Assembly (NCBI GenBank): GCA_030679255.1
Contig: JAUXTO010000018.1
Coordinates: 2,973 to 66,972 of the forward strand
Direction: 5' to 3'
DNA length: 64,000 bases
From: Candidatus Gottesmanbacteria bacterium
Lineage (GTDB): Bacteria; Patescibacteriota; Microgenomatia; UBA10105; UBA927
Part shown: one piece after another, positions 2,513-36,700 of the stretch
Position numbering within the stretch: position 1 is the stretch's first letter
Layout: the number at the start of each line of letters is the position of its first letter
Made by a program: the position numbers and the translations under genes
Notes under the pieces: model-generated
Told to the model about the DNA's origin: nothing
Database searches by the model: none
The model's input: the letters and a program-made list of their open reading frames with translations, nothing else

Positions 2513-2553
2513 CATGAGACTAATGAGTCTCATGGGCCCCATGAGTCTCATGG
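2513..2553. repeat. Palindromic CATGAG-W-CTCATG motif cluster 2. It overlaps the stop of the four-helix-bundle gene.
   Basis: CATGAGACTAATGAGTCTCATGG at 2513-2535 and CCATGAGTCTCATGG at 2539-2553. Confidence 0.6.
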
Positions 2554-3095
2554 AGCGCTTTGCGGCGAGCAAGGAATAGTTTCTCCCGAAATCCTCCCTC
2601 GCGGACAAAACGGTTTTTGATGCCTGTTAAAAATCGATCCATGAGAAAGCCCTGTTTTATGCAAAGCGTCATCATGAGGTTGGCGAAGCTTTCCTGATCA
2701 TCAAAACGGATTTCATGCCACGCCTGAGCGTCATGAGACACATGAGTCTCATGAATATCGATGAGAATTTTTCGAAGTCGAAACACCCGCGGATCATTTT
2801 TATCCCATACGGGGAACCCTTTTTTGAAAAGAAAATCTTTATAGTCTTCGGTCAGCTCCCCATAGCTTGCCCGCGAGACGCCCGAGAGCTTAAGATTGCT
2901 TTCAACCGAGTTTTCCAGACTCCCTTCGACGAGATTCTGTTTTCCTGAGCGGTTCGCCTGTTCCATTTGATCGAAGGTTCTCGTAGTGCGGGGGATATAG
3001 CGGGTTATGAAGATATGGTTGAGGTGGGAAATTTCCTGGGCAAGCCAGTAGACAAGGGTGTTTTCTATCCCGCCAGTTTTTTGTGAGTTTTCCAT
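2520..3095 (-). CDS. Four-helix-bundle protein (23S rRNA intervening-sequence protein family, PF05635-like).
   Basis: Reverse-strand ORF, 2520..3134 in the track. The likely start is ATG at 3095 (MENSQKTGG...), 4 nt after the tRNA-Ala(CGC) 3' end. The sequence matches the family pattern: LVYWLAQEI...F..RYIP, then QNLVEGS, then SGVSRASYGELTEDY (compare NIAEG...ARGSL.EL.TQ). The C-terminus (IHETHVSHD...LHETHGAHETH) is translated read-through of the palindromic motif, where CATGAGACTCAT reads as HETH. Confidence 0.55.
   Translation of the reverse strand: MENSQKTGGIENTLVYWLAQEISHLNHIFITRYIPRTTRTFDQMEQANRSGKQNLVEGSLENSVESNLKLSGVSRASYGELTEDYKDFLFKKGFPVWDKNDPRVFRLRKILIDIHETHVSHDAQAWHEIRFDDQESFANLMMTLCIKQGFLMDRFLTGIKNRFVREGGFREKLFLARRKALHETHGAHETH
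2732..2767. repeat. Palindromic motif cluster 3. It lies inside the four-helix-bundle CDS.
   Basis: CATGAGACACATGAGTCTCATGAATATCGATGAGAAT. A further half-site, CCATGAGAAAG, sits at ~2638. Confidence 0.5.
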
Positions 3096-3098
3096 GGG

Positions 3099-3171
3099 TG
3101 GACCCGATCGGATTCGAACCGACCACCCCTGCAATGCGAATGCAGTGCTCTACCAAATGAGCTACGGGCCC
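3099..3171 (-). tRNA. tRNA-Ala (anticodon CGC).
   Basis: Reverse complement of 3099-3171 reads GGGCCCGTAGCTCATTTGGTAGAGCACTGCATTCGCATTGCAGGGGTGGTCGGTTCGAATCCGATCGGGTCCA. This is a canonical cloverleaf with G3:U70, D-arm GCTC/GAGC, anticodon loop TTCGCAT, and T-loop TTCGAAT. Confidence 0.85.
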
Positions 3172-3463: not shown

Positions 3464-3762
3464 ACTCACTCTAGTTTTCTCTCTTTTTTGCTCCTTGTCA
3501 AGGGGGCAAACTCGTCCTTGACACACCCTTTTCGCGCGCGTCATTATGTATATATAATAACTTTTTTCGCTAGCGGTTTTCGTTGGGTTTGAAACAGTTG
3601 GTGAAAAAAGATTGCATGCCCGGATCACTACCCAGGAATTTTTTTCATTTCAAGCATACAAATAAAAAATTAAAATCCCACGCATTTCTCCGTTTACCCA
3701 TCGTTGATGCATTTCTTTCTCTATTGATATCGTTATTGTCTCCCATGAGACACAGGAGACCC
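3464..3762. promoter_or_regulatory. Divergent intergenic control region between the small reverse-strand ORF and the giant gene. It contains an AT-rich tract and TTGACA-like boxes.
   Basis: Direct repeat tcCTTGTCAagg ... CCTTGACAcacc at 3491-3529. AT-rich stretch at 3540-3700. AGGAGA at 3754-3759 is a possible Shine-Dalgarno for ATG 3763 or 3772. Confidence 0.3.
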
Positions 3763-33700: not shown

Positions 33701-36700
33701 CCCAGGGGAAGCAGAGCGAGGAGCGGGCGAAGAATCCGCCGCAACCGATTGACGCGGTCATGGCGATCCCTCCCATCGCGGCACCGGTAGTCCCGCCTCC
33801 CGCACCGGGAACAGCACCCGGCCAATCGCCGCTTGGAATTCCGGCCCAACTCCCCGAGTGCGTCACCGGAGATACAAAGCTCAAGAGGAGAAAGAAAGGA
33901 AGAAAGCAAGAGAGGAAGATAGCCGGAGCCGGATCAGATTTAGATGGTGTGGAGAAAAAACAAACCGCCTCTTTCGAAGCGGCTGTTGGTGAAGGAGATA
34001 CAATATCTCCGTCGTCCGATAAGCTTATATATGATACATCGCTTATGCCGGTTATGTCAAGTGGGCGGAAGGCGGGAGACTTGCACTCCATCCCGTCTTA
34101 CGACGGGACCATTCGCTTATCAGACGACGCCCCCTCGTCGGAGGTTCACCTTCCACCTGACGCCAGTATATCACAGGATGAATATGAGGACGTTGCCATC
34201 AAAGACATCCAGGCGGGCGACGAGATCCTGTCTCTGAACGAAGCCACCGGCCAGTTTGTCCCCCAGATTGTGGAAAAACTCATGGATAAGGGCATGCAAC
34301 AAACCTATCTTCTTGTGACATCATACGGAAAGCATATTCGCACGACAGCACAACACCCCTACCTTGTGCGCGATCCGCGGTTTGTAGAGCCGCCCATATT
34401 CCCTGAGCGGATTTTTGGCAGCTTTGAAGTGGATTTATCCGGTCATATTGAGGACACCTCTGTCGATACGTTTGTATCCGTTGCGAACCAATCATTTGCG
34501 CAGACCATACTGATCGAACAAACAGTCAAAAGACTACTCCAAAAGTTATTTAAGAAAAAAAATCACCTGAAGTATCTCGGACCACGCGTATTGGCAGCAG
34601 CGATTATGAGAATTATTCGACAAAGCAACATCGCCGTGACACATTTGACCGTTGATTTGAAATTCCCCGGATATCTGGAGGAAATTTCGCAGATACTACA
34701 TAGATTTGATCCGGACATGATGGTGTATTTCGGATCTATCGGCAAGCATTCACCAGCTCACTATGCCGCTCATGGCGCATTTATTGGGAAACAGCCGATT
34801 ATCGGCTTTTTACAGAAAGAGGATATTTTCGGTAACAAAAAAGACCGCGATTCCCGAAAGAATCTAGGCGCTTTGCAAAGTAAGGACGATCATATCCTAG
34901 GGAAATCGCCTGACCAAGTAAAGAGCGCACGCGGTCAATTTGTCTCCCCAGTATATACGAGAAGTCTCGATCTGTCAAACGGATCTTCGTGGAGAAAAGT
35001 AAAGGATATCAGAGTCAATCTGGAGGTAGCAACGATCGATGGTTGGGAGCGGATCGTGAGCATTGTGCCGATAGCCCGTGAGCATGTATACGATGTTCAA
35101 ATTTCCGGCACCCATAACTTCGTCGGCAACGGCATCGTCGCGCACAACACCTCAATAGAATCGATGCGGGTCCGGGAGTTCCATGCCGATACGGACGGGC
35201 AGGGGACTCAGCACTCAAAGGTTATCGAAGATATGCTCGTCCATATTTTGAATAATCCTGATACGGCAGGAGCGTTCCAGCTCATCCGGTCTGTCCGGTT
35301 GTTTGCAGCCCAGCACGGTATGACGGCGCTTGCAAGCATGGAGGAAACGCGTATCCGCGAGCTCCTCCCCACGATCTTTCGGTTTTTTGCACAGCACCAT
35401 GAAATGGGCAACTTCATGGGGATTGTGGATGGCAAACTCGCCGTATTCAAGCTTCAACATCACCCGGGCGCGGAAGCGCGGGCAAAAGCGATTTGGGATT
35501 TGATGACGGGCAACGATGCGTCTGCCTATCGCGCGAAAGCTCAGGAGTACGGAGCAGGTACTCTTAATGACGACGAGTGGAATCTCATCCGGGGATTAGT
35601 TGGGCAGATGATTATCGAGACGAACGTCGATCAAAACACAGACGGGTATGGGCTTGTCAGCCGCGTCTTTAATTTCAACATCAACGGGCCAGAGATGAAG
35701 GAGGCAGAGGGGTTTCAAAATACCCTTGTTAATTTGTATTCTCTATCCCAACGCCAAGTCCTCGTAACCAATCCGTTTACGAAGAAATTTGACCTCCCCC
35801 AACCATGGCTCCTGAAACGGATGTACGATATTGCCCTCCATTATACCAATTCATCAAATAAATCTTACGAAGAAAGTATCCGTGCGACTGTCGAAGAGGG
35901 ATGGACCCAGACAACTGAAGAAATTGATGCGCTCACCGGTCTTGCCAAGCTCTTTCATCGGGCCCGAAACGGTCTGGGAAACCTTGCTGCCCTCGCCGAT
36001 CAGGAAGTGGGTGCGTACCTACCGGATGGCGCCTATACCAACCCCCGGACCAATATTTCCTGGGCTCTCATGGCCGAGTACATCCGCCGCGACGTGCCCG
36101 TACCGGGCTACAACCCGGCCAAACCGGAAGAGTATTTGGGTTTCATCGACACGATGGCCAATATCGAATTTGGCAAACTCTTCCACAATCTCATGCAGGA
36201 TGCAGGAGGGGAGTTAGCGTGGACCAACCGGACCCCCGCCGCCCAGCTGGCCTTCGCCCGCGCCCGCCAGGCGGAGCTTAAATCCATGGTCGCCGAAGCG
36301 ATGAAACAACAAAGATTGACCGAATTACAACTCGCAGATCTGCCCGGATTTTTAGAGAAACTGCCCGGGAAGTATCCGGACGGCGCTAGACAGAAATTTG
36401 AACAGGCACTTGAAGAGGCGATGAATAGAGTGAATGACCTGCGGTCGGCAGAACAAAAAAATACTGCGAAGACTATCCAGACATTCACTGCTCCTTTTGA
36501 AAAATTGAGTGCTGATCCGGAAGTGTCGGCATATATCATTGGTCTGGATCCGGACTATCTCGCAAGTCTTGTTGCAGAAAAGGGGGCAGTGGATCGTAGG
36601 GACGCGGAAGTGATGGTCGCTGCATTGGAGCTGCTCGCCCAACGGGATCCACCAAAGAACGCACCGCAAGATCCGGTTGTAATGGCCAAAAGAGCGCTCA

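Follow-up and report, generated by a model that had tools for sequence, protein, structure and literature searches.

The usual picture of an intein is that of a parasite that occupies a conserved catalytic site in an essential protein and is equipped with a nested endonuclease of the LAGLIDADG or HNH type. The DnaB mini-inteins of Nostoc punctiforme (NpuDnaB, PDB 4o1r) and Synechocystis (SspDnaB, 1mi8) occupy a conserved site of an essential helicase, have ordinary hydrophobic residues after block A, and have been solved in forms without a nested domain. PI-SceI, PI-PfuI and the Tli and Pho VMA inteins carry a nuclease-type domain nested in the Hint fold between blocks B and F, and the Hint domain of endonuclease inteins adds a nucleic-acid-binding surface, as in the DNA recognition region of PI-SceI. 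Bacterial intein-like (BIL) and PT-HINT domains reportedly occur in variable, non-essential and often giant or repeat-rich proteins of the secreted type, often several per protein. The window analyzed here, a stretch of 64,000 nt from a Candidatus Gottesmanbacteria genome (GCA_030679255.1, contig JAUXTO010000018.1, positions 2,973 to 66,972), encodes part of a giant protein interrupted by an intein (intein 1, 33859-35148) that has the blocks of the DnaB inteins, the nested plan of PI-SceI and the genomic setting of the BIL and PT-HINT domains.

By every computable criterion, this segment is a genuine class-1 intein with a Hint fold. It had been proposed as one in an initial annotation made from the sequence alone, a finding that is correct and more general than stated there: the same open reading frame (ORF) contains a second copy, and relatives were identified at 203 loci, nearly all of them in metagenome-assembled genomes (MAGs) of Patescibacteria, the candidate phyla radiation (CPR), in a search of one genome per GTDB species. 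The reading towards which we lean, at slightly better than even confidence, is that of a splicing-competent, mobile class-1 intein of a CPR family that carries a non-canonical nuclease module.

Splicing blocks of intein 1

The features of intein 1 and its flanks are listed below. Structural statements refer to an AlphaFold2 (AF2) model computed from a 10-sequence family alignment (A1), with the predicted local distance difference test (pLDDT) as the measure of confidence.

33766-33858, + strand: Pro-rich linker of the N-extein, IPPIAAPVVPPPAPGTAPGQSPLGIPAQLPE, ending in -LPE before Cys1 (translation; absent from homologous locus L004)
33859-35148, + strand: intein 1, 430 aa, in frame with the giant ORF and free of stops
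33859-33876, + strand: block A, CVTGDT, with the nucleophile Cys1; C1, V2, T3, G4, D5 and T6 are invariant in A1
33877-33918, + strand: Arg/Lys-rich run KLKRRKKGRKQERK, 10 Lys or Arg in 14 residues, the first of which make up strand beta-1 of the Hint fold
33901-34167, + strand: disordered low-complexity expansion of the beta1-beta2 hairpin, aa 15-103 (pLDDT <50)
34168-34392, + strand: N-terminal Hint half including block B, TTAQHPYL, with T163 and H166 (pLDDT 84-95; aligns to NpuDnaB and SspDnaB)
34393-34800, + strand: nested domain MID, intein-1 aa 179-314, RNase H-like fold (AF2, alignment)
34801-34959, + strand: mostly disordered connector from MID to the C-terminal Hint half (pLDDT <50 at aa 326-367)
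34960-35148, + strand: C-terminal Hint half with blocks F and G, VYDVQISGTHNFVGNGIVAHN; His is the penultimate residue and Asn430 the last (Pfam, TIGR01443, PDB alignment, AF2)
35149-35151, + strand: Thr+1 of the C-extein (ACC), the transesterification nucleophile (translation)

The translation of intein 1 opens with CVTGDTKLKRRKKGRKQERKIAGAG, contains TTAQHPYL, and closes with THNFVGNGIVAHN followed by Thr, which bears out the Cys-initial CVTGDT, block B, terminal His-Asn and Thr+1 of the initial annotation, all of them in frame. The N-S acyl shift and Asn cyclization that it had called plausible agree with the complete class-1 residue set found here (Cys1, TxxH, the block F Asp/His, His-Asn and Thr+1). 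Two intein profiles score above their cutoffs on intein 1, PF14890 (Intein_splicing; E=1.3e-14, 54.7 bits, cutoff 35.8) and TIGR01443 (intein C-terminal region; 29.1 bits, cutoff 15.6). The closest PDB sequences found by phmmer are the mini-inteins NpuDnaB (3e-10) and SspDnaB (1.5e-8), aligned across blocks B, F and G, with T163-A-Q-H166 opposite the TxxH of both; intein 1 has the same blocks A, B, F and G as these two, including the ...HNFVxNxIxxHN ending. Superposition of the AF2 model on 4o1r and 1mi8 with Foldseek confirmed the Hint fold, at template-modelling (TM) scores of 0.78-0.79, normalized to the target, and pLDDT is 84-95 in the Hint parts (aa 1-11, 105-176 and 368-430). The invariant residues of block B in A1 are T162, T163, H166, P167 and Y168. 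Intein 1 differs from the DnaB inteins in its Arg/Lys run and 95-aa hairpin expansion, its nested RNase H-like fold, Thr rather than Ser at +1, and its location in a linker.

Intein 1 is probably splicing-competent, to judge from these residues. After translation of the giant protein, Cys1 would undergo an N-S acyl shift, Thr+1 would take over the N-extein by transesterification, and Asn430 would cyclize, so that ...GIPAQLPE would be joined to TSIESMRV... and a flexible linker left uninterrupted. From 76 of the loci, 64 complete inteins (66 with the window copies) were extracted with the CVTGDT start as the search pattern, and Thr+1 is present in 63 of the 64; the exception, a Ser, belongs to a doubtful 147-aa boundary call made by the search pattern. 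This conservation argues for splicing, because cleavage alone needs no Thr+1.

The same residue bears on an alternative in which the Hint domains act as cis-proteases of the BIL or PT-HINT kind that cut a giant polyprotein at its linkers and leave the exteins unligated. Polyvalent giant proteins need internal processing (PMC5512222), both inteins of the window lie in inter-domain linkers among many unrelated enzyme domains, and intein 1 bears a weak resemblance, below threshold, to PT-HINT and to the BIL structures 2lwy and 6y75. However, its best matches are true DnaB inteins, and the PT-HINT profile PF07591 attains 19.5 bits against a cutoff of 27.7, the Hedgehog Hint and Hom_end_hint profiles being likewise sub-threshold. 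BIL and PT-HINT domains usually lack a +1 nucleophile and mainly cleave, whereas this family keeps the full set, including the Thr+1 that is required for ligation and not for cleavage. PT-HINT stands N-terminal to a toxin, whereas the Hint domain of intein 1 encloses a putative nuclease, and the C-extein runs for more than 9,600 aa beyond intein 1 with no toxin-adjacent PT-HINT layout. Homologues without the intein have a continuous polypeptide at the site. Autoprocessing without ligation is therefore considered improbable.

The nested domain and the basic hairpin

The initial annotation described an insert of about 250 residues between the splicing blocks, without an obvious LAGLIDADG or HNH motif. 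The latter observation held, since Pfam and NCBIfam scans of intein 1 returned no family of either type even at E up to 1, but the single insert resolved into a folded domain of 136 aa (MID, aa 179-314) and a disordered tail (aa 315-367). The AF2 model of MID, built from a 63-sequence alignment (pLDDT 96.3), orders its secondary structure as three strands, two helices, strand, helix, strand and helix, and contains the RNase H-like core sheet of three antiparallel strands followed by helix-strand-helix-strand-helix. Nine residues of MID are invariant in the family (D192, S194, E198, D203, K224, D266, G295, S298 and P299), and H301 is nearly so. In the model, D192 lies at the end of beta-1, E198 in the beta1-beta2 loop, D266 at the end of beta-4 and H301 at the start of the last helix, positions that seem to correspond to those at which nucleases of the RNase H fold place their metal ligands. 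On this model, MID represents a new domain of the RNase H fold, its D, E, D and H being conserved and a plausible catalytic set, and is a putative nuclease.

No significant sequence or profile match to MID was found in Pfam, PADLOC, PHROGs or the PDB, and searches of Pfam and of PDB sequences with 12 family members and with the 63-sequence profile gave none to RNase_HII or any other RNase H family; the NCBIfam scan of the whole of intein 1 identified the intein blocks only. Weak matches of MID to PP_kinase, PDC-M05B and bS20 were dismissed as noise. MID is 9% identical to RNase HII of Thermococcus kodakarensis (1io2), has a DQS...E motif in contrast to the DE dyad of that enzyme, and at 136 aa is without its C-terminal substrate-binding domain.

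A search of 1.84 billion representative proteins with the MID profile detected 794 relatives, many of them parts of larger proteins, the longest of 7,694 aa; about 100 of the best 150 are free-standing proteins of approximately 145-155 aa that begin with MID. Homing endonuclease families likewise occur as free-standing genes. Free-standing MID genes (about 150 aa) adjoin other small nuclease genes (L077, 5336-6444; L080, 3879-5456, also L081 and L082; L084, 147-865, also L085). The neighbour is a free-standing NYN gene in two contexts, one of which continues with genes for an N6/N4 methylase, a HerA-like ATPase and an HATPase, and an 89-aa GIY-YIG gene lies 12 nt upstream in another.

The MID of intein 1 has five substitutions at conserved positions (Q to L, E to K at the DxE position, Y to F, and F to L twice), which suggest that its putative nuclease is decaying.

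The annotation had also reported a highly basic insertion of 20 residues after block A. A basic segment is indeed present, its first residues forming a predicted strand at aa 7-11, but it is the beginning of an insertion of about 95 residues (aa 7-105), most of it predicted to be disordered. Intein 2 and the majority of relatives lack most of this hairpin expansion. In intein 1, 119 aa separate Cys1 from the GDEI motif, versus a family median of 40, and the intein-1 hairpin is enlarged by about 75 residues modelled as disordered. The basic run itself is kept in intein 2, and at least six Lys or Arg occur within residues 7-20 in 60 of the 66 complete family inteins, the two window copies counted. 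Since it is conserved across the family, the run is presumably functional. The shortest family members have a basic run followed by an acidic run, LKRRRRRKGKNGEWIEEWEDV, and in the model the basic residues form strand beta-1; we infer that what marks the family is a first Hint hairpin lengthened by charged residues.

In the mechanism that we favour, the basic hairpin would bind nucleic acid and MID would cleave it, the two together constituting a mobility module. The module would spread the element to tolerant, non-catalytic sites, namely Pro-rich linkers in giant ORFs and the 'GNVGIGTT...LHVxGQ' repeats of surface-type proteins, and these linkers and repeats would have been chosen, or would have survived, as places that tolerate insertion.

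The second copy, the host gene and the insertion sites

A search of the remainder of the giant ORF with intein 1 (phmmer) identified a second intein, absent from the initial annotation:

46663-46848, + strand: Pro/Gly/Ala-rich linker before intein 2, ending in ...GAPIAKVDPQ (translation)
46849-47880, + strand: intein 2, 344 aa, ORF residues 14426-14769, a paralogue of intein 1 (phmmer, 1e-65)
47185-47586, + strand: MID of intein 2 (alignment)

A GNAT domain (about nt 46363-46641) directly precedes the linker. Intein 2 opens with CVTGDTILKRRRKKARKQDRKIEGAG and closes with HNFVGNGIVAHN/TS (the slash marks the splice junction), and both copies possess C1, T163, H166, the block F Asp/His and the final His-Asn. 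The two inteins are 39% identical as proteins, and their DNA similarity is limited to the first and last 70 nt or so (85%), with unrelated flanks; selection evidently acts mainly on the splicing blocks at the two ends and on the basic run. In GC content both match the host, and in GC content at third codon positions (GC3) they are similar to it. The host-like composition, together with the 39% identity between copies, indicates that both are old residents, and a recent horizontal arrival was rejected on these grounds. A run of 34 nt across blocks F and G is identical at every position, synonymous ones included (35105-35138 versus 47837-47870). Third-codon positions vary freely across the family, and DNA-level constraint on the intein termini was not detected; the 34-nt identity therefore looks like a local matter of shared ancestry, gene conversion or codon choice rather than a family-wide DNA signal.

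Of the two copies, intein 1, with its disordered expansion of 75 aa and the five MID substitutions, seems to be the older or the more decayed, whereas the MID of intein 2 keeps every highly conserved position. These two features, and the small cost of an unspliced insert in a linker, also speak for a relic, that is, an intein that no longer splices and is kept as a tolerated extra domain in a flexible linker. Yet divergence has left every splicing residue of both copies intact, and it is the terminal blocks alone that are still about 85% identical in DNA, which indicates purifying selection on the splicing machinery. An inactive relic thus seems quite unlikely, though a shade less so than autoprocessing.

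The gene that contains both inteins is the sole long open frame of the window:

3574-64000, + strand: host giant ORF, without a stop from 3574 to 63999, at least 20,142 codons, continuing past the 3' end of the window

For the start codon, the candidates are ATGs at 3616, 3745 and 3763, and a gene caller placed the start at the equivalent of 3763 on a Logan contig. Pfam domains of the giant protein include ResIII, GNAT, LytR_cpsA_psr, FHA, Pkinase (Ser/Thr) and, weakly, Fic. A second Gottesmanbacteria MAG has a syntenic orthologue that reaches 20,250 aa or more before the contig end cuts it (GCA_016218205.1, JACREO010000013.1; 74-82% DNA identity over the first 8.5 kb or so, the part compared), and indicates that the giant gene is real. 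The product of the upstream gene, a LysM-M23 peptidase, is 100% identical to a Candidatus Gottesmanbacteria MAG protein encoded on a 70,122-nt contig, and the Logan contig, from SRR13727518, includes this gene together with the 5' end of the giant one.

These independent contigs and the orthologue contradict any view of the intein as a chance resemblance or an artefact of assembly or ORF calling, as do the scores above curated Pfam and TIGRFAM cutoffs, the confident Hint model, the paralogue in the same ORF and the 203 loci; no point was found in its favour, and it can be practically dismissed.

The host protein is strongly depleted in Cys (51 in 20,142 aa). A stretch of about 14,000 aa (residues 2207-16212, nt approximately 10192-52209) contains only four, two of which are Cys1 of inteins 1 and 2, and the N-terminal 2,200 residues or so have Cys in regular pairs. 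The giant ORF is separated from the M23 peptidase gene by two tRNA-Ala genes with GGC and CGC anticodons on opposite strands (2432-2504, + strand, and 3097-3171, - strand), and between these lies an ORF of 204 aa (2520-3134, - strand), the 5' end of which overlaps the second tRNA gene.

The initial annotation had considered two features of intein 1 unusual, its location in a low-complexity linker and its basic segment. Both are real, the N-extein being Pro-rich as described, but neither is peculiar to intein 1, for they recur in intein 2 and across the family. The 20,142 aa of the giant protein include only about 10 Pro-rich stretches, and each of the two inteins terminates one of them; seven further inteins from loci of the giant-ORF type all have low-complexity N-flanks, mostly rich in Pro, Ala and Gly. 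The association of inteins with linkers is non-random.

Two classes of insertion site were distinguished. In class A, the majority, the inteins interrupt repeat-rich proteins at ...GNVGIGTTxP...LHVxGQ/C...HN/TYxxGNVGIGTT, and each occurrence of the motif precedes an intein (five in L024, three in L023 and three in L001); L024 is a single ORF of 4,325 aa with five inteins, block A being located at residues 651, 1090, 2040, 2590 and 3315. Either the flank GNVGIGTTSP...LHVxG[QA] travels with the element or the motif is its target. In class B (the window, L004, L026 twice, L030, L041, L046 and L049), the intein follows the end of a low-complexity linker, in most cases rich in Pro, Ala and Gly, typically ...(Q)LPE/C, a short low-complexity stretch follows Thr+1, and the ORFs are very long, spanning the entire 21-kb locus in L046 and L049. 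The ending ..(Q)LPE/C is shared by L004, L030, L041 and P0002, and ..QPE, ..PPE and ..IPE are found in L026 and L046.

The window protein is collinear with blocks of L004, L026, L030, L046 and L049, with inteins at different places. On the N-terminal side of the intein-1 site, L004 is 38% identical to it over 556 aa, and on the C-terminal side the identity is 72% over 97 aa. At the site, L004 reads ...EERAKKPQPLDAILGTREFHGDTDGK... (also given as ...PQPLDAILGTREFHGDTDGK...), and the window has ...EERAKNPPQPIDAVMA (...PQPIDAVMA), the 31-aa Pro-rich linker, the intein, TSIESMRV and then REFHADTDGQ...; L004 thus lacks both intein and linker. L004 has an intein of its own, of the MID type and likewise behind a Pro-rich flank (...QPLDLPE), at a distance of about 630 residues; the corresponding place in the window, about 500 residues beyond the intein-1 site, is without an intein. 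In L046, the interval that holds the GNAT domain, linker and intein 2 of the window consists of 94 residues with no Hint domain. This pattern of presence and absence among L004, L046 and the window identifies the inteins as dispensable insertions that differ between homologues. In the two sequences compared at the intein-1 site the linker occurs only with the intein, which may mean that it moves together with the element or simply that insertions and deletions are common at the site. Scans of JGI metagenomes with the C-extein and with intein 1 returned no relative, for which reason intein-less alleles were examined in GTDB loci only; an 800-aa spliced-extein query had no match among 5.8 billion proteins.

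The intein family and its interchangeable domains

In protein databases, intein 1 is matched best by proteins of Patescibacteria, which are 34-40% identical to it and align with everything outside the low-complexity expansion. Contigs labelled 'uncultured Gammaproteobacteria bacterium' (L004, L024-L026, L030, L042, L046 and others; TPA_asm 'binchicken' records and MAGs of ERP/SRP co-assemblies) encode homologues of the giant protein and inteins of the CPR type, and these organism labels look unreliable. IMG/VR contains next to nothing of the family, a single match being good, and a phage origin was rejected.

The 64 complete inteins have in common a CVTGDT...RRRR...HN/T scaffold with different nested domains: MID in 11, NYN (PF01936) in 24 and other inserts in 29, among them DUF3800 (L042) and a domain weakly similar to LPD3/EndoU (L046 and L049), which the inserts of L040, L041 and L076 resemble by eye. 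Alternatives to MID were observed at L001, L017, L023, L026, L029-L032, L042, L046, L049 and others. PI-SceI and similar inteins, in contrast, nest LAGLIDADG or, in a few cases, HNH domains and interrupt conserved catalytic sites.

This interchangeability can also be accommodated by a view of the element as domesticated rather than selfish, in which splicing frees a nuclease effector (MID with an Arg-rich hairpin resembling a cell-penetrating peptide) from a giant protein of the multi-enzyme or surface kind in an episymbiont of the CPR and reseals the carrier, which would parallel the way in which polymorphic toxin systems release their toxins through HINT domains. The Hint scaffold hardly varies, whereas the nested domain is exchanged among nuclease types typical of conflict systems (NYN, DUF3800, the weakly LPD3/EndoU-like domain and MID); the hosts are giant, multi-domain or repeat-rich, with up to five inteins per ORF; the neighbours of free-standing MID genes include NYN and GIY-YIG genes and an island of methylase and HerA genes; the host protein is poor in Cys; and the flanking linker seems to accompany the intein. 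On the other hand, export of the giant protein or extracellular action of the intein is without support, no immunity gene was identified, and the nested, putative nuclease occupies the same loop as ordinary homing endonucleases. The decay of the intein-1 MID fits a selfish endonuclease and not a maintained effector, and the inteins are present in some homologues and absent from others. We consider it unlikely that the Hint domain and poly-Arg/Lys hairpin form a release cassette, perhaps with its own linker, that frees interchangeable nucleases and makes the intein a device of effector delivery.

Several observations weigh against a mobile, splicing-competent intein as well. The location in a linker relaxes selection on splicing, such that an unspliced insert might be tolerated, and the E-to-K (at DxE), Q-to-L and Y-to-F changes of the intein-1 MID affect conserved sites. 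The empty site of L004 is not a clean excision, as the Pro-rich linker and 7-8 residues of the C-flank are missing along with the intein, and the window/L004 junction has neither a target-site duplication nor microhomology; classical, precise homing is therefore not demonstrated by this site. Variable third-codon positions in the terminal blocks likewise amount to no DNA-level signal of homing. The activities for which NYN and RNase HII-like enzymes are chiefly known are directed at RNA or RNA-DNA hybrids rather than at specific sites in DNA. The six recognized structural families of homing endonucleases include no RNase H or PIN/NYN fold (PMC3384342), and the nested domains of the present family (RNase H-like, NYN, DUF3800 and LPD3-like) fall outside those six folds. 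A milder possibility is that the RNase H-fold and NYN domains may be previously unrecognized families of homing nucleases, possibly acting on RNA or on RNA/DNA hybrids.

The literature searched yielded no paper that ties inteins to NYN, DUF3800 or RNase H-like endonucleases, to Patescibacteria or to CPR, and inteins are unmentioned in the polyvalent-protein paper and in the giant-gene paper; no description of this large CPR intein family was found there. The family departs from inteins as generally described in its residence in disordered linkers or structural repeats of giant, fast-evolving, apparently non-essential proteins, in its nested RNase H-like, NYN and DUF3800 domains, unreported in inteins within the searched literature, and in the poly-Arg/Lys hairpin grafted onto the Hint fold. 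The host is itself notable: CPR genomes are typically small, and a gene of more than 60 kb would be a large share of one. A 2023 preprint on giant genes does not list CPR among the phyla in which very large genes have a high incidence. If splicing is true, the family would offer new compact Thr+1 inteins that tolerate low-complexity flanks and are useful for protein engineering, and would supply candidate new families of nucleases. It also raises the questions of how inteins may spread without a conserved target and of whether CPR bacteria may use protein splicing to release effectors.

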